A DNA stretch of 64,000 bases from Escherichia phage vB_Eco_NR1: sequence record LR990704; one strand, written 5' to 3'. Shown piece by piece: positions 5,054 through 62,235 of the stretch; within the stretch, counting starts at the first letter, position 1; every line of letters starts with the position of its first letter. A program made the position numbers and the translations under genes. The notes beneath the pieces were generated by a model. It searched no databases. It was not told where the DNA came from and saw only the letters and a list, made by a program, of their open reading frames with translations.

Positions 5054-5066
5054 TCTTTGACGATTT

Positions 5067-5097
5067 AAGGGACCTTCGGGTCCCTTTAGTTGTTTTT
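5067..5097 (+). terminator. intrinsic terminator after gene 23
   Basis: AAGGGACC-TTCG-GGTCCCTT stem-loop followed by a T-rich tract. Confidence 0.8.
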
Positions 5098-5101
5098 ATG
5101 G

Positions 5102-5109
5102 TATAAATA
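5102..5109 (+). promoter_or_regulatory. late promoter (TATAAATA) for gene 24
   Basis: Exact TATAAATA 28 nt upstream of the gene 24 ATG, just after the gene 23 terminator. Confidence 0.75.
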
Positions 5110-5136
5110 AATCATATAAACCAAAAGGAAAGCGCA

Positions 5137-24529: not shown

Positions 24530-24716
24530 AGTAATCTAGTGGTAAGAGAGTACGATATATTTCAAACTTTGGTCCTTTTTCATAGGCATCAAATGTTTCT
24601 GTAAATTTATTATAAGCGTATGCATCTACAAATTCGAGAATGACTTGTGATACAGAAGTAGAAACATCTCCACCTTCTTTTTGAGCAATGACAATTGTTT
24701 CTAAGTAAGCTTTCAT
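24528..24716 (-). CDS. hypothetical protein, 62 aa (alt.1-like position)
   Basis: Small ORF whose start overlaps the ligase stop; terminator hairpin downstream. Confidence 0.6.
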   Translation of the reverse strand: MKAYLETIVIAQKEGGDVSTSVSQVILEFVDAYAYNKFTETFDAYEKGPKFEIYRTLLPLDY

Positions 24717-26176
24717 AGACCAGTTACCTCATGAAAATCACCAAATACATCCTCGAATGTATTAGCTTTAGTTTTATCTTCACGTAAACGAATCGCAATC
24801 GGAAGAAATAATTTAACGTAATCAGTGCGGCCATCAGATTTTAACCAACCGTTGCATTCGCACTCTAGAATTTTTCCAATATAATAATTTTGGTTTTCCA
24901 TAATGCGAGTACGGTCAAGCTCATGTGATTTTACGCCGGCTTTATCTTTTAAGCCTGAACCAGCATTTACTTTAATTTTTCCACATTCTGATTCAAGAAT
25001 AAATCCACCCGCTTTAGTAGGGTCTTTACGGTGAGGATAAATTCCTACAATTTTTAAATCAACATCAATTACTTCTTTAAATTTATAAAGATTTTTTGAA
25101 CGAGCATTTTCCCATAATCCATCGATATTTTTGAGAATAATACCTTCAAGACCTTGGTCAATATACTTTTTATAAATTACCTTAGCTTCATCTAGGTTAT
25201 TTACTACCTGGTTTTCAATTAAAATTACTTTATCATATCCTGATGTCATTTGTTCTAGTTTAGAAAAACGTACATCATATTTTAAACGAAACGCCGGAAG
25301 ACCATATATTTCTACTAACGGGACATAATCCCAGACCTGAAACTTCATGCATTGAGCTTCTTTTTCAGAAATGGTTCCTTTTAAGGATTTATTGGCGATT
25401 CCATTAGAAGTAGTACGAGATTCCGCTACTTCAGCAAACTCTTTAGCTTTACTAATTTCAGGATAAGCATCAAAAAGAAAATCTAGGCCTTCTGGCTCCT
25501 TTTTAACTTGCTCATGGTATACCAATTCGCCATCAATTAACACACCTTCTGGATGAATCTGGCGGGCTTCAGCGGTCATTTTGATTAACTCTTCCTTAAG
25601 AAGATCTAATCCTAGATATTCATTACCAGCTCGTGATAAAAGACGGACATCATCTAATTCATCACCTCTAACTTCAGCAAAACACCGAGCTCCATCTGCT
25701 TTTAATTGTGCAAAGGCTGGAAATTTGATATTCTTACTAATGCCTTTTTCATCATAAGAACTTGCGAGCATTTGAGGTTGTTCAGGAATTAAACCTGGCC
25801 AAACTTTGTTTGCAATAGATACTGAAGCACCACATTCAAGGTCTCGCATCATCACTCGACGCAAAACTTCAACATCATCTTTTTTACCATCAGTGATATA
25901 TCCAGATAATTCCTCAATTGCCGCATTTCCGGTCAATTTCCGAGTAGCTAACGTGAATTCAATGAAGTCAAGCATATCGGTAAGAGTCAACATTCCAAAA
26001 CTCTGGGTAGCAATACCAGATTTAGGCCATTTCTTGATATAATACTGCAACCCACGAGAATAAGTCAGACGATATACTCGTTTAAGCAATTCATTATCTT
26101 TATTCTTTTCAAGAATTGCTTGCTTCTGCTTAGTTGAACCAATAGATGCTATTTCGTTCAGAATTTTAAGAATCAT
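24713..26176 (-). CDS. 30: ATP-dependent DNA ligase gp30
   Basis: 487 aa; N-terminus MILKILNEIASIGSTKQKQ.. and adenylation lysine motif (..AQLKADGAR..). Confidence 0.95.
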   Translation of the reverse strand: MILKILNEIASIGSTKQKQAILEKNKDNELLKRVYRLTYSRGLQYYIKKWPKSGIATQSFGMLTLTDMLDFIEFTLATRKLTGNAAIEELSGYITDGKKDDVEVLRRVMMRDLECGASVSIANKVWPGLIPEQPQMLASSYDEKGISKNIKFPAFAQLKADGARCFAEVRGDELDDVRLLSRAGNEYLGLDLLKEELIKMTAEARQIHPEGVLIDGELVYHEQVKKEPEGLDFLFDAYPEISKAKEFAEVAESRTTSNGIANKSLKGTISEKEAQCMKFQVWDYVPLVEIYGLPAFRLKYDVRFSKLEQMTSGYDKVILIENQVVNNLDEAKVIYKKYIDQGLEGIILKNIDGLWENARSKNLYKFKEVIDVDLKIVGIYPHRKDPTKAGGFILESECGKIKVNAGSGLKDKAGVKSHELDRTRIMENQNYYIGKILECECNGWLKSDGRTDYVKLFLPIAIRLREDKTKANTFEDVFGDFHEVTGL

Positions 26177-26442
26177 TGTTCATCCTTTAGAGTTTGGTTT
26201 ACAGCTCTATTATAAATCAATTCATCATTAAGCTCAGTCAAAGACCTATGGTACGTGGTTCTAACTTTATTTCCTTGCATCCAGTGTTTGACGTAAATGA
26301 AACCTTGCTCTACACATTTTTTAAAAATTCGTTCGTCTTTTTGAGCTCGGAATTCTGGATTGCATCTAAAAAATTGATTTACGTGACCGTAATCACGTGT
26401 AGTATTACCTTCATTTTCATAAATAGTGTGAACAACAAACAT
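26173..26442 (-). CDS. 30.1: hypothetical protein (T4 30.1 position)
   Basis: 89 aa ORF with ATGA overlap to the ligase start. Confidence 0.65.
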   Translation of the reverse strand: MFVVHTIYENEGNTTRDYGHVNQFFRCNPEFRAQKDERIFKKCVEQGFIYVKHWMQGNKVRTTYHRSLTELNDELIYNRAVNQTLKDEQ

Positions 26443-27278
26443 TAGAATGCTCCTTGGAAAATATTATCACCACTAGTAGGTCTATTATACAAATACTCTA
26501 TGCCACCAGGTTTAATATAGTTCCATGTCTGAAACGGATGTGTCTGATATGGATGATATGGATTATAAGGATTAAATCCAGGAGTTCTCCAGGTAGTGTT
26601 CCAACGAAAAGAATCATTTTTAATCATCTTTTCAATTACATCTTTTATAGCTTTTTCACTATCAAAACTTTCTTTATTTTCCTTTGGTGAAAAAAGCTTA
26701 TTCTCTACATCGTTCCATGTATAAACTCGCTGAGCGGTTTTTGGAATACTGTCACGTTCCCCTCGAGCCATCCAATACACAGGAACACGTAATATTTCAC
26801 TCGCATGATCGCAGTGGTGAGCGAGATCGTCAATATAACAAATTACGTTATATTTCTCTTTTGCCTTTTTGAACAACTCTTCTTTTGAAGAATCATGACC
26901 ACACATCATTACTTCTGAGAAGGCACCAGGAAAAAGAGCATTCAAATTAAATTGACGATTCAGCAGAGCGTCAATAGAATCACCCAATGCTGTAACAGCT
27001 ACAAAATTATAATCTTCTTTTAATTTGTTAATTACACACAGAGCATCTTTATATGGAGACAAATAACGAATAAAATCTGATCGATTGTATTTTTCAATTA
27101 GCTTAACGCCAAGTTCTTCATCACAGTTAAAGAGTTTACCAGGAGAAATAAATTTCTCATCCTGGATCATTTTTAAAATATGTTCTAACGGAAGATTATA
27201 TTTCTGAGCAAAATAAGGAAGGCCTGATTGCCAGCTTAAACATACTCCATCAATATCAGTTAAAATAGTAGGCTTCAT
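26442..27278 (-). CDS. 30.2: HAD-superfamily hydrolase-like protein (T4 30.2 position)
   Basis: 278 aa; N-terminal DIDGV motif (HAD motif I). Confidence 0.75.
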   Translation of the reverse strand: MKPTILTDIDGVCLSWQSGLPYFAQKYNLPLEHILKMIQDEKFISPGKLFNCDEELGVKLIEKYNRSDFIRYLSPYKDALCVINKLKEDYNFVAVTALGDSIDALLNRQFNLNALFPGAFSEVMMCGHDSSKEELFKKAKEKYNVICYIDDLAHHCDHASEILRVPVYWMARGERDSIPKTAQRVYTWNDVENKLFSPKENKESFDSEKAIKDVIEKMIKNDSFRWNTTWRTPGFNPYNPYHPYQTHPFQTWNYIKPGGIEYLYNRPTSGDNIFQGAF

Positions 27279-27598
27279 AGAGAGTCTCTTAATAGGTTTA
27301 ACACATCAATAAATTCAGCTTCGGTTAGTATTGTATCATCTTTTGTTAGACCACTAGCCATGCTGTGCTTCAAAACTTTTCCTTTCGAGGCTTGTAATGC
27401 ATCACGAAAGCCCTTGTTTTGGATCGCTGCTTCAAAATATGCATTTGTGTATAATTCTTTCCACGCCGGGGAGTATCTTGAAAATGGAACTCCAAGCCAG
27501 AAGAAGGGTCCCACGGTCCTGAGCTCTAGCATAAGACCTTCCAGCTTGTTGAGCGGCAAGCCCGGATAACCCAAATATACGACGTTGTTGTTCAACAT
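27275..27598 (-). CDS. 30.3: NADAR-like domain, C-terminal segment (T4 30.3 position)
   Basis: 107 aa ORF; ..SRYSPAWKELYTNAYFEAAIQNKGFRDALQ.. resembles the C-terminal half of YbiA/NADAR proteins. Confidence 0.55.
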   Translation of the reverse strand: MLNNNVVYLGYPGLPLNKLEGLMLELRTVGPFFWLGVPFSRYSPAWKELYTNAYFEAAIQNKGFRDALQASKGKVLKHSMASGLTKDDTILTEAEFIDVLNLLRDSL

Positions 27599-27740
27599 TT
27601 TTCACCTTGCACCCTTGGAGGAATCCTTCAAGACCTCCAAATTGAATACCATCCATAACGAAAGGCCATTGGGCGAAATTACTTAATGCGCATGATGGCC
27701 ATCTAAAATTACTTCTAATCTCTAACTCAGACATTTTCAA
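27432..27740 (-). CDS. 30.3': NADAR-like domain, N-terminal segment in an overlapping frame (T4 30.3' position)
   Basis: 102 aa ORF; ..LSNFAQWPFVMDGIQF..EGFLQGCK.. resembles the N-terminal NADAR motif; overlaps 27432..27598 in a different frame. Confidence 0.5.
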   Translation of the reverse strand: MKMSELEIRSNFRWPSCALSNFAQWPFVMDGIQFGGLEGFLQGCKVKNVEQQRRIFGLSGLAAQQAGRSYARAQDRGTLLLAWSSIFKILPGVERIIHKCIF

Positions 27741-27933
27741 TGCTTATAATTTCAACATCAGCCCAATGACCATAGCAAGGAAGACGAAATTCAACTGGCC
27801 AGTTAGGGTCCTTTTCTAATATAATAGACTCAACTTTCGGTTCTTCGTGTTCATCAGTATACGGATTTTTATCTGTTACTTTATATGTGACCTTAATGTA
27901 CTGAATTCCAAAAATCTTATTAATTATATTCAT
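27727..27933 (-). CDS. 30.4: hypothetical protein (T4 30.4 position)
   Basis: 68 aa ORF, overlapping-start chain typical of phage early operons. Confidence 0.6.
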   Translation of the reverse strand: MNIINKIFGIQYIKVTYKVTDKNPYTDEHEEPKVESIILEKDPNWPVEFRLPCYGHWADVEIISIENV

Positions 27934-28887: not shown

Positions 28888-29032
28888 AATTATTTTACTA
28901 CTTTCCAGTGCTTCATGTCAAGTTTACCAACTTTTTTCATCTTCTCAATTAAGCGTTCGGCACGTTGGCGAGCTGTAACATAATGCCATTCACCTAATTC
29001 ATTTTGTTCAATTTTTCCAACGATTACTGTAT

Positions 29033-29221
29033 TCAATTCATAAATCCAACCAGTAAAGAAATTATGAACTTGAATTGTAAAGGTGAAATCTGTTCCATAC
29101 CTTCTGCTGTTTCTACTTCAATAATATCACCTTCAACTGCCATTAAGAACCACATAGTTTCATCATATTTACCATTGAAGCATTTAGTTTTAACTGTAGC
29201 GTTCAGATTAATCGTTTTCAT
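29033..29221 (-). CDS. 30.8: hypothetical protein, 62 aa, possibly the N-terminal part of a frameshifted 30.8
   Basis: ORF with SD (AAGGAG) and early promoter upstream; the -1 frame stays open for about 46 more codons to 28890. Confidence 0.55.
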   Translation of the reverse strand: MKTINLNATVKTKCFNGKYDETMWFLMAVEGDIIEVETAEGMEQISPLQFKFIISLLVGFMN

Positions 29222-54096: not shown

Positions 54097-54104
54097 GAGG
54101 ACTT

Positions 54105-57100
54105 ATGGCTACTTTAAAACAAATACAATTTAAAAGAAGCAAAACCGCAGGTGCACGTCCTGCTGCTTCAGTATTAGCCGAAGGTGAATTGGCTATAAAC
54201 TTAAAAGATAGAACACTTTTTACTAAAGATGATTCAGGAAATATCATTGATTTAAGCATTTCCACTGGCGGTAATATCAGTGGAAATATCACTCAAACTG
54301 GAGATTATTTACAGAACGGTACATATAATCTCAATGGAAATCAGTTTGTTTATGCAGGAAAATATATTGAATTTTTACCTAAAACTGCAGGTAATGGCGC
54401 TTGGGCAAATCAACACCTAAATAAAGCCCCTATTTTTACAGATTTAAGTTCAACTACTTCTACTTCAGAATACCATCCGCTAATTAAACAGCGTTATAAA
54501 GATGGGACTTTTTCTGTTGGTACGCTAGTAAACGAAGGAAGTTTTAAAATTCATTATATCAATGAATCGGGAACTTCAAAATACTGGACATTTCGTAGAG
54601 ATGGTGGATTTGTTGTTGATACAGGAAGTTTGACAGTAACAGATGGAAATATTTCTGCTTCTGGTAATATTAATTCGGCTACTGGGGTAGTTTCTGCGCC
54701 ACGTGTCAACACAAAAAATATTAACATAAGCACGAAAACCTTTATCCCGAATAATGACGCGGGTTATGACATTGTTTCTTTACCTACCTGGGTTTATAAC
54801 CCACCGGCCGATGGTTCCGACAATACTACAAATGGATTGAACTATTTGCGTAAATTACGTGCATCAAGCGCATCAAGTATTTTCCATGAAATTGTTGATT
54901 GTCGAAAAGGTAAGCCGCAAGAAATTTCTTGGTGGACTGGTGTAGGACCTTCGTCTTTCCAGTGGGCGTTTGATACCTCTGGACGTATTACTGCAGGTAA
55001 ATCTATTTCTGTAGGTCTTCCTGATAGTGGTACAAATGGTCGTTATCCTTTAGATTCTGCAATTTCTATTGGTATTGCGATTGGCGATAACGATACCGGT
55101 ATTAAATGGGTCCGCGATGGCGTTTATGACCTGATGGCTAACGGTATTTCATCTGCTACCATTTTGAATAATGGTATTAATAGTACTAAAAAATTGATGG
55201 TTGGTTATAGTCGAGATTCCGGTTCTACTTGGGATTTCCCAAATAATAACCAAGCAATGTTTACTGCGCGTACCGATGTTGATGGTAATAATAACGGCGA
55301 TGGACAGACTCATATCGGATATAGCAGCAATGCTAAGATGTATCACTATTTCCGTGGTACAGGTCGTATGTCCGTTAGTATGGGTGATGGGCTTCTTGTT
55401 GAGCCTGGCATTTTAGATATTAAAACCGGTTCTAATAGCGTTGCTATTAGAGCAGACGGAACAATTAACTCCACCCAGCGTATTTCTATGCGTACGGGCT
55501 TGTTTTTAAATGGTGATGATAATACTAATGCTTTATCGTTTAAAGCTCCTTCCGGTGTAGATGGTACCAAAACCATTAACTGGGATGCAGGTACTCGTAA
55601 TGGTCAGAATAAAAATACCGTAACCATTAAAGCATGGGGTAATTCATTTAACGCTGAAAAGGGTAATAGAGAAACTGTATTCGAAGTTTCAGATTCACAA
55701 GGTTATTATTTCTACGCTCAACGTACTAATCCTGCGTCAGGTCAAACAGTAGGTCCGGTTAACTTTAAATTTAACGGAACTGTCGAAACAGGCCATATCA
55801 TAGGCCTTGGTAATATAAGTGCCTCCGGTACAGGTTCTTTTGGTGGCAATGTTACTATGTCTAACGGTTTGTTTGTCCAAGGTGGTTCTTCTATTACAGG
55901 CCAAGTAAAAATTGGTGGAACAGCTGACGCATTAAGAATTTGGAATGCTGAATACGGCGCAATTTTCCGTCGTTCTGAAAGTAACTTTTATATTATTCCA
56001 ACTCTTAAAGATGCTGGAGAATCAGGTGGTATAAGTAATCTTAGACCATTGATAATAGAACTGAACACCGGCACAGTTAAAATGTCGCATGATGTTCATT
56101 TAGGAGATTCTGGATCTGGTACAGGATTATTACAAGTAAGTAATAGTCTTAAAACTATTAAAATGATATGTCCAGTAACTATTAATGAACGTAATGCAGC
56201 GCTTACTCTAGATTCTCCTTCATCTTCTTCTGCTAATTATTTACAAGGTTCTAAAGCTGGAATTAGATCGTGGTATGTTGGTCTTGGTGGCGCTGGAAGT
56301 GATTTATCGCTTTATAGTCAATCATATGGACACGGTCTTGTTATAAGCGATAATTTCGTGTCAATCAGTAAACCTCTTAAAGTCGGAAATGCCCAACTAG
56401 GAACTGACGGTAATATTACCAACGGTTCTGGTAATTTTGCTAACTTAAACACCACGCTAAATCGTAAAGTTAATTCTGGATTTATTACTTATGGAGCAAC
56501 TGCTGGATGGTATAAGTTTGCAACAGTAACAATGCCACAATCCACTTCTACGGTCTTCTTTAAAATAGCCGGTGGTTCTGGATTTAATAGTGGATTATTC
56601 ACACAATGCAATATTGCTGAAATTGTTTTACGTACTAGTAATGAAAGACCTGCTGACTTAAATGCTGTATTATACACAAGAACAATTGCAGCTGCATTTA
56701 AAAATATTGCAGTTAATAACGTCTCTGGAGATACATATGACATTTATGTTTATGCCGGAACATATTGCAATCAATTAACTTGTGAATGGTCATGTACCGA
56801 AAATGCTACTGTTAGCGTTATTGGTATTAACTCATCTACCCAATCACCTGTGGATGCTCTTCCAGATACAGCAGTTGATGGGCAAGTTGCTAATGTTCTT
56901 AATAACTTGGTTGATCGCGGCAAAGTTAAGCGTTATGAAGCCGATTCTGAAATAGCTATTAATAACCAAACTGGTATTCGTATTAGAAGCAACAGCGATA
57001 AAACTGGTTCTGTTGCTACAATGCTACGAAATGATGGCAGTAGTTTTTATATTCTGTTTACAGATAAAAATGCCACCGATGGCGAAGCAACTGTTAACGG

Positions 57101-57905
57101 TGATTGGAATAGTAAGCGTCCTTTCGCAATTAACTTAACAACAGGCGAAGTATTAATGAATAACGGCATAGCTGTTCGCAGTGCTGCTTTATTCTATAAT
57201 AGCATAAATGTCAAAGATAATGGTTCTATTAACTTTGATAAGTCTGGTGCTAACCCAAGAAATATGAGAATATTTCATGCTGGCGATGCTTCTCGTGGTA
57301 ACCGTATTGAAATTGCCGATGAAACTAACTATATTGCTTACTTTGAAAAAGCTCCAGGTGGAGCTAACCGCTTTGTAGTAAATAATGCTACTGTAGCTGG
57401 TGTTAACCAAATGAATTCATTTGGTATTAATATCAATAACGCACTTGGTGGAAATAGTATAGCATTTGGTGATAGCGATACTGGTATTAAGCAAAATGGC
57501 GATGGATTATTAGACATATATGCGAACAGCGTACAAGTATTCCGTTTCCAAAACGGTGATTTGTACTCATATAAAAATATAAATGCTCCAAACGTTTATA
57601 TTCGTTCTGATATTCGCTTAAAATCTAATTTCAAACCTATCGAAAATGCACTTGATAAAGTTGAAAAACTCAATGGTGTCATTTATGATAAAGCTGAATA
57701 CATCGGTGGAGAGGCAATTGAAACTGAAGCGGGTATTGTAGCTCAAACGTTACAAGACGTTTTACCAGAAGCCGTCCGTGAAACAGAAGACAGCAAGGGT
57801 AATAAAATACTCACTGTTTCTTCTCAAGCCCAGATTGCTCTTCTGGTTGAAGCTGTGAAAACGCTTTCTTCTCGTGTAAAAGAACTTGAATCTAAACTTA
57901 TGTAA
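54105..57905 (+). CDS. 37: long tail fibre distal subunit gp37 with C-terminal intramolecular chaperone-like domain
   Basis: 1266 aa; conserved N-terminus (MATLKQIQFKRSKTAGARPAAS..); C-terminal ..NAPNVYIRSDIRLKSNFKPIENALDKVEKLNGVIYDKAEY.. resembles self-cleaving chaperone domains. Confidence 0.93.
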   Translation: MATLKQIQFKRSKTAGARPAASVLAEGELAINLKDRTLFTKDDSGNIIDLSISTGGNISGNITQTGDYLQNGTYNLNGNQFVYAGKYIEFLPKTAGNGAWANQHLNKAPIFTDLSSTTSTSEYHPLIKQRYKDGTFSVGTLVNEGSFKIHYINESGTSKYWTFRRDGGFVVDTGSLTVTDGNISASGNINSATGVVSAPRVNTKNINISTKTFIPNNDAGYDIVSLPTWVYNPPADGSDNTTNGLNYLRKLRASSASSIFHEIVDCRKGKPQEISWWTGVGPSSFQWAFDTSGRITAGKSISVGLPDSGTNGRYPLDSAISIGIAIGDNDTGIKWVRDGVYDLMANGISSATILNNGINSTKKLMVGYSRDSGSTWDFPNNNQAMFTARTDVDGNNNGDGQTHIGYSSNAKMYHYFRGTGRMSVSMGDGLLVEPGILDIKTGSNSVAIRADGTINSTQRISMRTGLFLNGDDNTNALSFKAPSGVDGTKTINWDAGTRNGQNKNTVTIKAWGNSFNAEKGNRETVFEVSDSQGYYFYAQRTNPASGQTVGPVNFKFNGTVETGHIIGLGNISASGTGSFGGNVTMSNGLFVQGGSSITGQVKIGGTADALRIWNAEYGAIFRRSESNFYIIPTLKDAGESGGISNLRPLIIELNTGTVKMSHDVHLGDSGSGTGLLQVSNSLKTIKMICPVTINERNAALTLDSPSSSSANYLQGSKAGIRSWYVGLGGAGSDLSLYSQSYGHGLVISDNFVSISKPLKVGNAQLGTDGNITNGSGNFANLNTTLNRKVNSGFITYGATAGWYKFATVTMPQSTSTVFFKIAGGSGFNSGLFTQCNIAEIVLRTSNERPADLNAVLYTRTIAAAFKNIAVNNVSGDTYDIYVYAGTYCNQLTCEWSCTENATVSVIGINSSTQSPVDALPDTAVDGQVANVLNNLVDRGKVKRYEADSEIAINNQTGIRIRSNSDKTGSVATMLRNDGSSFYILFTDKNATDGEATVNGDWNSKRPFAINLTTGEVLMNNGIAVRSAALFYNSINVKDNGSINFDKSGANPRNMRIFHAGDASRGNRIEIADETNYIAYFEKAPGGANRFVVNNATVAGVNQMNSFGININNALGGNSIAFGDSDTGIKQNGDGLLDIYANSVQVFRFQNGDLYSYKNINAPNVYIRSDIRLKSNFKPIENALDKVEKLNGVIYDKAEYIGGEAIETEAGIVAQTLQDVLPEAVRETEDSKGNKILTVSSQAQIALLVEAVKTLSSRVKELESKLM

Positions 57906-57907
57906 AA

Positions 57908-57935
57908 GAGGGCTTCGGCCCTCTAAGGATTTTTA
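57908..57935 (+). terminator. stem-loop after gene 37
   Basis: AGAGGGC-TTCG-GCCCTCT stem-loop, short T-tract, directly before the gene 38 start. Confidence 0.55.
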
Positions 57936-58721
57936 ATGGCAATTGTAGGTGTTCCTGGCTGGATTGGTGAATCTGCCGTGAATGAAACTGGACAGCGTTG
58001 GATGGATGCTGCGATGAGAGCAGTTCGTGTTTCAGTTCCTGGTTGGATGAGCTCAATGGCTGGGCAATCTAAAGAAGTATATTATAGCATTGGTGCTAGC
58101 AATTCTTACAATAAAGACACACTAATAAATTGGATAAAAGCCCAAGGAAGTACTCCTGTTGTTATTACTATTACAGGAAATATCGTTTCTTCATCGACAG
58201 GTCAACCATGCTTAGATTTTCCTAGCTCATTAACTAATGCATACGTGACACTTAATATCAATTCAGGCGTGCATGTTTGGGGTCGCGGCGGGAATGGTGG
58301 AAATAACTCTGCTGGCGGAGCAGGAGGAACTGCAATAAATAACGGAATTGGAACTAGATTACGTATTAATAACAATGGTGTTATCGCAGGTGGCGGTGGC
58401 GGCGGTGGCGGCGGATACTACTCTCCTTTTTCACAAATGAGATTGACTTTTGGCGGTGGAGGTGGTCGTCCATTTGGTGCTGCTGGTGGGTCTGCTAATA
58501 TGGAACAGGGTGCTACTGCTGGTACTATTTCTGCGCCCGGTAAAGGGTCTGTCAATGGTATCTATAATGGCGGGAATGGTGGTGATGCCGGTGCCGCAGG
58601 AGGTAAATGTAATATTCGCGGTCAAGGATCAGAATATAACGGCGGCGCTGCTGGTAAAGCTGTTACTGGTAATGCTCCAACTTGGACTAAAGTTGGCACA
58701 ATATATGGTTCAAGAGTATAA
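57936..58721 (+). CDS. 38: gp38 receptor-recognising adhesin (T2-type) with glycine-rich motifs
   Basis: 261 aa; conserved N-terminus MAIVGVPGWIGESAVNETGQRWM..; glycine-rich motifs and a G9 run separating variable segments. Confidence 0.88.
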   Translation: MAIVGVPGWIGESAVNETGQRWMDAAMRAVRVSVPGWMSSMAGQSKEVYYSIGASNSYNKDTLINWIKAQGSTPVVITITGNIVSSSTGQPCLDFPSSLTNAYVTLNINSGVHVWGRGGNGGNNSAGGAGGTAINNGIGTRLRINNNGVIAGGGGGGGGGYYSPFSQMRLTFGGGGGRPFGAAGGSANMEQGATAGTISAPGKGSVNGIYNGGNGGDAGAAGGKCNIRGQGSEYNGGAAGKAVTGNAPTWTKVGTIYGSRV

Positions 58722-62138: not shown

Positions 62139-62235
62139 TTTCTAATCTCCGTAATTCTGTATCAGTAGTTGATAGTTGTATAGTACCACAGTATGCTTTG
62201 GTTGTAAACCGTTTTGTGAAAAAAAAAAAATTTTG

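Follow-up and report, generated by a model that had tools for sequence, protein, structure and literature searches.

A single extra T splits the NADAR gene adfN (30.3) of Escherichia phage vB_Eco_NR1: a probable strain-specific null allele

INTRODUCTION

How does a gene that encodes one enzyme in phage T4 come to be spread over two overlapping reading frames in Escherichia phage vB_Eco_NR1? The window, meaning the whole 64,000 nt stretch of record LR990704.1 (167,153 bp) that was analysed, is a T4-like (Tequatrovirus) genome segment syntenic with T4 GT7 and with Citrobacter phage PhiZZ6; the gp30.2, gp30.7 and 30.8 fragment that it encodes are exact matches to CAD7712028, CAD7712033 and CAD7712035 of vB_Eco_NR1. 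An earlier note, made from the letters of this DNA, had described a NADAR-like domain divided between the two frames and offered as explanations a +1 translational frameshift, a conserved pseudogene or an overlapping gene pair. A one-base mutation and an artefact of sequencing, assembly or stock have to be weighed beside these.

T4 gene 30.3 has been renamed adfN, for ‘anti-DarT factor NADAR’, and encodes a DNA ADP-ribosylglycohydrolase countering DarTG1 (PMC11825919); the UniProt name of the T4 protein is NADAR_BPT4, ‘Anti-DarT factor NADAR’. AdfN strips the guanine ADP-ribosylation laid down by DarT1, whereby T-even phages are resistant to DarTG1 (PMC11825919), and an independent study found that gp30.3 hydrolyses guanine-ADPr in vitro (PMC11125620). 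The E36A and K43A mutants are impaired, both residues and also the C-terminal helix being needed for full activity, and E36A, K43A and C-terminally truncated AdfN all retain partial activity (PMC11825919). The reversal of DarT DNA ADP-ribosylation that the earlier note had proposed is thus the published function of T4 gp30.3/AdfN (PMC11825919, PMC11125620). The literature already covers the gene, the NADAR fold of its product and its role against DarTG1.

RESULTS AND DISCUSSION

Two reading frames share one domain

The adfN locus occupies the T4-type position between 30.4 and 30.2, near the DNA ligase gene. The features of the region are as follows.

24713..26176, minus strand: DNA ligase gene 30, followed by 30.1, 30.2, the adfN region and 30.4 to 30.8
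26442..27278, minus strand: gene 30.2, phrog_420, 278 aa, with HAD-like motifs; its start codon and the stop of adfN share ATGA (27275-27278)
27275..27734, minus strand: adfN (T4 gene 30.3) locus, a disrupted NADAR gene of 460 nt, that is 459 nt plus one inserted T
27275..27598, minus strand: ORF B, 107 aa; 32 codons from the 30.3′ start, then AdfN residues 78-152
27365-27367, minus strand: invariant H123, on ORF B together with the C-terminal helix
27432..27734, minus strand: ORF A, 100 aa; AdfN residues 1-77, then 23 residues out of frame up to a TGA (27432-27434)
27504..27505, minus strand: the extra T (TT here, T in relatives), at gene nt 230/231 in codon 77, placed by alignment to T4 GT7 and PhiZZ6
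27603..27608, minus strand: putative Shine-Dalgarno-like AAGGTG, read from the sequence, 4 nt before the ATG of ORF B and 30.3′ (27596-27598)
27606-27608, minus strand: catalytic K43, on ORF A
27627-27629, minus strand: catalytic E36, on ORF A
27727..27933, minus strand: gene 30.4, 68 aa; stop codon overlapping the start of adfN (ATGTCTGA)

Both overlapping ORFs are present on the minus strand, ORF B in the +1 frame relative to ORF A, and the motifs that had been quoted for them are there. ORF A had been listed as 27432..27740, which is a TTG-extended version; the real ATG is at 27734. In Pfam searches ORF A matches PF08010 (Phage_30_3) over profile positions 1-71 of 138 (E 4.9e-33) and ORF B over positions 63-138 (E 2.1e-31), whereas the in-silico +1 fusion of the two matches over positions 1-138 (E 1.2e-65). 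Each ORF thus carries one half of the family profile, which bears out the claim of a domain split over two overlapping frames, and the split match is far beyond chance. A full-length match within one encoded polypeptide is lacking, as only the fusion spans positions 1-138. Judged by these profile matches the locus is a member of PF08010 by descent, but a disrupted one. The catalytic residues are likewise parted: E36 and K43 lie on ORF A and H123 on ORF B, so that no one polypeptide holds all three, each of which is invariant or nearly so across the family.

The first ~31 codons of ORF B follow T4 30.3′, after which the insertion switches the frame to that of AdfN. ORF B is an exact match to the annotated NR1_066 (CAD7712029.1), and annotators should be warned that this entry is a frameshift chimera of 30.3′ and adfN and no genuine protein.

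The NADAR assignment is reached through relatives of the window sequences. A direct search with Pfam NADAR (PF08719) gave no match at E<=10 for ORF A, ORF B or the in-silico fusion, so the NADAR link runs only via family members, profile and fold search. PF08719 is matched by 22 of 55 family members (best E 1.5e-7). With the family profile, YbiA of E. coli (2b3w) is found at E 0.008, the match covering the SNF...E..Q..K motif. The intact homolog P0003 was modelled with AlphaFold2 (pLDDT 93.6), and a Foldseek search of the PDB with this model has YbiA 2b3w as its best match (E 1.6e-4, TM 0.66), followed by the NADAR proteins of Phytophthora (8bau) and Geobacter (8bat); all other matches have E>2. 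The gene 30.3 family, as modelled, has the NADAR (YbiA) fold. The identification of a NADAR-like domain therefore holds at the level of family, profile and fold, but not in the PF08719 search of either frame or of the fusion.

One extra base accounts for the split

In a three-way alignment there is exactly one indel, the window reading GGGACCCTTCTTCTGG where T4 GT7 and PhiZZ6 both read GGGACCC-TCTTCTGG. The codons at this point change from CTC TTC TGG to CTT CTT CTG G. Gene 30.3 is annotated in T4 GT7 and in PhiZZ6 as a single ORF of 459 nt and 152 codons, and deletion of the extra T from the window restores a 152-aa protein that is identical to T4 AdfN at 151 of 152 residues (the difference being I125M), with one synonymous difference left against PhiZZ6. 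Beyond the extra T the gene is undamaged, as would be expected of a very recent mutation and of an artefact alike.

The break is absent from all relatives searched at the nucleotide level. A 71-nt query centred on the site was covered by 392 phage records, none of which carries the insertion or matches at 100 %; even in the best of these matches, 71 query bases are aligned to 70 record bases. An exact 29-mer containing the insertion has no matches in IMG/VR. At the protein level, family loci from IMG/VR with 36-97 % identity consist of one uninterrupted ORF in 79 of 80 cases; the remaining locus (L017) is cut by a contig end and was set aside, and 3 of the 79 complete loci start at a downstream ATG. 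A tblastn search with the intact protein returned 1510 phage records, 1503 of them covering at least 80 % of the query, and in all 60 records sampled evenly down the ranking of the 1510 the match is in one piece and one frame.

The earlier note had named an alignment of the overlap across T4-like genomes as a check, and relatives with the domain in a single uninterrupted frame as the sign of a simple indel or sequencing error. That alignment showed that the frame break is not conserved, and single-frame relatives are what was found. With the break missing from the 392 records and from IMG/VR, the proposed programmed +1 frameshift loses its ground; the conserved split or overlapping pair fails likewise, given that every relative examined in these comparisons has an uninterrupted 152-codon ORF. 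Since relatives encode the domain in one frame, a simple indel is left and the recoding and conserved-split readings are refuted. From the alignments, then, the feature is a strain-specific one-base insertion in an already known gene.

Mutation or artefact

The strongest competing explanation is that the phage has an intact adfN, the extra T being an error of the consensus or a minority variant, or else that the mutation became fixed only in the sequenced laboratory stock. Taken jointly these variants are unlikely, though they deserve serious weight. The insertion is unique among the 392 records, the gene is otherwise pristine with its one synonymous difference from PhiZZ6, and the 30.8 homolog, a mere 1.6 kb away, has a private 1-nt indel of its own, which could mean that the region is locally poor. 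However, the phage was sequenced on an Illumina NovaSeq with a 250-bp paired-end protocol and assembled with SPAdes (PMC13390438), a combination that rarely yields indels at a T/TT site.

The quality of the rest of the window can be gauged from its synteny with PhiZZ6. When 101 PhiZZ6 CDSs were compared with the window by tblastn, 83 were found as a single full-length piece, or 84 including gp24, which was flagged only through a scoring quirk. Frameshift splits were seen in two CDSs only, both of the 30.x cluster: 30.3 and the homolog of 30.8. The remaining CDSs lack a match, have diverged strongly or run past the end of the window. Two split CDSs out of the 101 compared across 64 kb, with the essential genes all unbroken, speak against a generally faulty sequence.

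The second lesion bears directly on the question.

28890..29221, minus strand: 30.8 homolog (PhiZZ6_216, 110 aa, phrog_1507), with a 1-nt deletion near 29095 (CCC to CC on the plus strand)

The deletion splits the 30.8 homolog into an ORF of 62 aa and one of 48 aa; 414 phage records were compared and none carries it. An independent Logan assembly (P0107), differing at two residues, nevertheless has the same out-of-frame tail as the 30.8 fragment, for which reason the 30.8 lesion looks like a genuine allele and not like a product of poor sequence. A 30.8 frameshift allele thus probably circulates, to judge from this second occurrence. A genuine-looking allele at 30.8, combined with the absence of frameshifts from the other comparable CDSs, favours a real and very recent mutation in adfN.

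Predicted consequence of the insertion

The reading that we prefer, and hold to be probable, is that vB_Eco_NR1 carries a recent strain-specific null allele of adfN and no recoding device. Intact AdfN, with its 152 residues, removes guanine ADP-ribose from phage DNA and so neutralises the DarT1 toxin of DarTG1. The extra T in codon 77 shifts the frame such that translation from the native start yields residues 1-77, with E36 and K43, followed by 23 junk residues. H123 and the terminal helix belong to the C-terminal 75 residues, which can be read only from the internal 30.3′ start codon. In the P0003 model the break falls mid-fold in a beta-hairpin (residues 76-85, a 10-residue block with pLDDT 82-87). 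As the active site is divided between two polypeptides, the AdfN enzyme is most likely dead, and the insertion most likely abolishes AdfN function, although the fragments may keep residual activity. By analogy with T4 lacking adfN and with RB69, vB_Eco_NR1 is predicted to be sensitive to DarTG1. The origin of the allele would be a very recent, strain-specific loss of a dispensable counter-defence gene.

The phage can be flagged as a probable natural adfN-null T-even phage, with a prediction that is cheap to check: DarTG1 sensitivity, which T4 adfN provided in trans should relieve.

Recoding, fragment reassembly and an overlapping gene

Retention of useful AdfN activity, whether through low-level +1 slippage at CUU-CUU-C or through non-covalent reassembly of the ORF A and ORF B products, is improbable. 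If true, vB_Eco_NR1 would be a natural case in which recoding, or complementation between fragments, rescues a counter-defence enzyme.

In its programmed or efficient form, +1 ribosomal frameshifting at CUU-CUU-C restoring full-length AdfN is very improbable. A +1 shift exactly at the insertion would recreate the native protein (...DRGTL-FWLGVPF...), and the trans-frame peptide to be expected from it would span ...AQDRGTLFWLGVPFSR...; moreover, prfB and Ty1 also shift to +1 with CUU as the P-site codon, and a G-rich GGG lies 3 nt upstream of the site. Against this, every relative has an unshifted single ORF, so that a recoding signal would have had no time to evolve. The local context is also wrong for a slippery P-site codon followed by a stop or slow codon: the codons read ACC CTT CTT CTG GCT, and what follows the slippery codon (CUU CUU CUG) is neither a stop nor a rare codon such as a rare Arg codon. 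The +1 frameshift of the prfB type takes place at CUU UGA C with an upstream Shine-Dalgarno sequence. The vB_Eco_NR1 site resembles it in having a CUU codon where the +1 shift would be needed, and differs from it in that the A-site codon is neither a stop nor rare and the site is not conserved in any relative. Transcriptional slippage was considered separately and ruled out, the site having no homopolymer run.

Equally improbable is a split enzyme, in which ORF A and ORF B would both be made and their products reassemble non-covalently into an active NADAR. The break does lie in one of the lower-confidence parts of the model, the beta-hairpin of residues 76-85, the two fragments together carry all the catalytic residues, and ORF B has a plausible, though putative, ribosome-binding site in AAGGTG. 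However, each fragment has 23-32 unrelated residues at the junction, the arrangement is seen in none of the relatives, and it is the result of a one-off mutation and not an evolved architecture. Additionally, a published C-terminal truncation of merely 15 residues already lowers activity.

Of the overlapping pair 30.3/30.3′ that the earlier note had named for T4, the existence is correct but the role is not. T4 30.3′ is a 75-aa ORF (PF11097/DUF2883) in an alternative frame inside intact 30.3 (L001:1703-1930), and does not hold the rest of the domain. The first 40 residues of ORF B match PF11097 positions 1-40 of 75, yet the 75-codon alternative-frame ORF itself (27370..27598, minus strand) is not intact in the window, the frame switching after about codon 31. 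A conserved gene pair with both frames coding for functional proteins is barely credible: 30.3′ is annotated in T4 and all 15 close relatives compared have the +1 ORF open (3 of them without the upstream ATG), but ~14 % of synonymous recodings of AdfN yield a +1 ORF of at least 75 codons, third-position divergence is not lower inside the overlap (28 differences in 228 nt) than outside it (26 in 231 nt), distant homologs have no consistent ORF, the overlap in T4 involves no split domain, and in vB_Eco_NR1 the insertion destroys 30.3′ as well. As a real, constrained gene 30.3′ is thus unsupported, both by the chance frequency of such an ORF and by the unreduced synonymous divergence.

Neighbourhood and gene 30.2

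The earlier note had placed gene 30.2 directly upstream and suggested that a HAD-type hydrolase and the NADAR protein form a small ADP-ribose-processing module. In the direction of transcription, gene 30.2 lies downstream of 30.3. The HAD motifs I-IV (DxD, S/T, K, DD) are present in gp30.2, and the residues concerned (D8, D10, T96, K132/K140 and D150-D151) do not vary among 10 homologs, which reach down to 41 % identity; the UniRef label of the protein is likewise HAD-like. Beyond these motifs, the profile and structure evidence is weak. Only 1 of 10 gp30.2 members matches PF00702 (E 2e-4), and the protein of the window does not; the best PDB match of the gp30.2 profile is the deoxyribonucleotidase 2jao at E 1.3, and phmmer against the PDB found nothing. 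In an hhalign comparison with the T4 Pnk phosphatase the alignment covered motif I alone (E 0.014, probability 3 %), and a single-sequence AlphaFold2 model had a pLDDT of 35.5 and was unusable. By its motifs, gene 30.2 is plausibly a HAD hydrolase.

Homologs of 30.2 adjoin homologs of adfN in 21 of the 80 loci, all of them with T4-type synteny near the ligase gene, and the majority of the distant adfN loci have no 30.2 homolog within 1.5 kb. Adjacency that is confined to T4-type synteny does not by itself show a functional link between 30.2 and 30.3, and the ADP-ribose module remains a lead. T4 AdfN has been reported in published work to need an unidentified T-even factor, for which gp30.2 is a candidate. 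In vB_Eco_NR1 ORF A ends 157 nt upstream of 30.2, and translational coupling into 30.2 may be weakened. AdfN proteins of 152 aa are also found in the 90%-identity cluster to which gp30.2 (278 aa) belongs; the cause may be gene calls in some assemblies that read through or fuse the two genes.

Several further differences from PhiZZ6 are evident elsewhere in the window. The SegD homing endonuclease gene is absent (the differences from PhiZZ6 lying at ~5064-5122, ~54100-58700 and ~62219), and a poly-A tract near 62219 is 5 bases longer than in PhiZZ6. gp37 is highly diverged (~47 % identity) and there is no detectable gp38 homolog in the window, which by sequence comparison amounts to different tail-fibre and adhesin modules.

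Comparison with known systems

The NADAR superfamily, as represented by YbiA (2b3w), the Phytophthora protein (8bau) and the Geobacter DarG1-type protein (8bat), shares with the vB_Eco_NR1 locus the YbiA fold and the SNF...E..Q..K motif. One difference concerns the last strand: other subfamilies have Glu or Asp there, phage NADARs of the gp30.3 type a histidine (PMC11125620). T4 AdfN is closer still, being encoded at the same place, with 30.4 and 30.2 on either side and DNA ligase nearby, and with E36, K43 and H123 all present in both phages; however, the frame of vB_Eco_NR1 is broken at codon 77 and the full-length protein is not encoded.

Other broken alleles turned up in the homolog search. 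P0015 has a different adfN frameshift, just after LFWL, and P0105 is a second, independent 107-aa fusion of 30.3′ and 30.3, five codons further downstream. In P0014, P0051 (phage vB_EcoM-RPN226) and P0094, the C-terminal part of AdfN has become fused, through deletions, to 30.7, 30.8 or 30.4. P0021 is also listed among the natural deletion fusions and the independent frameshifts close to this site in T4-like genomes and assemblies. The 30.3-30.8 block accordingly looks like a hotspot for loss, as far as these sequences go. Together with RB69, the broken alleles fit a counter-defence gene that phages can do without and lose where they do not meet DarTG1, and the vB_Eco_NR1 allele would be further evidence of repeated adfN loss in the absence of DarTG1.

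RB69 is the nearest precedent and already a textbook case of a natural frameshift allele, so that little is new overall. Its adfN has a natural T insertion at nt 411 and encodes a protein 15 residues shorter, which correlates with sensitivity to DarTG1 (PMC11825919). Both phages are T-even, and in both a natural single-T insertion has shifted the frame of the same gene. The two alleles differ in severity: RB69 loses the last 15 residues only and is left with partial activity (PMC11825919), whereas the lesion of vB_Eco_NR1 at nt 230/231 halves the fold, parting E36 and K43 from H123.
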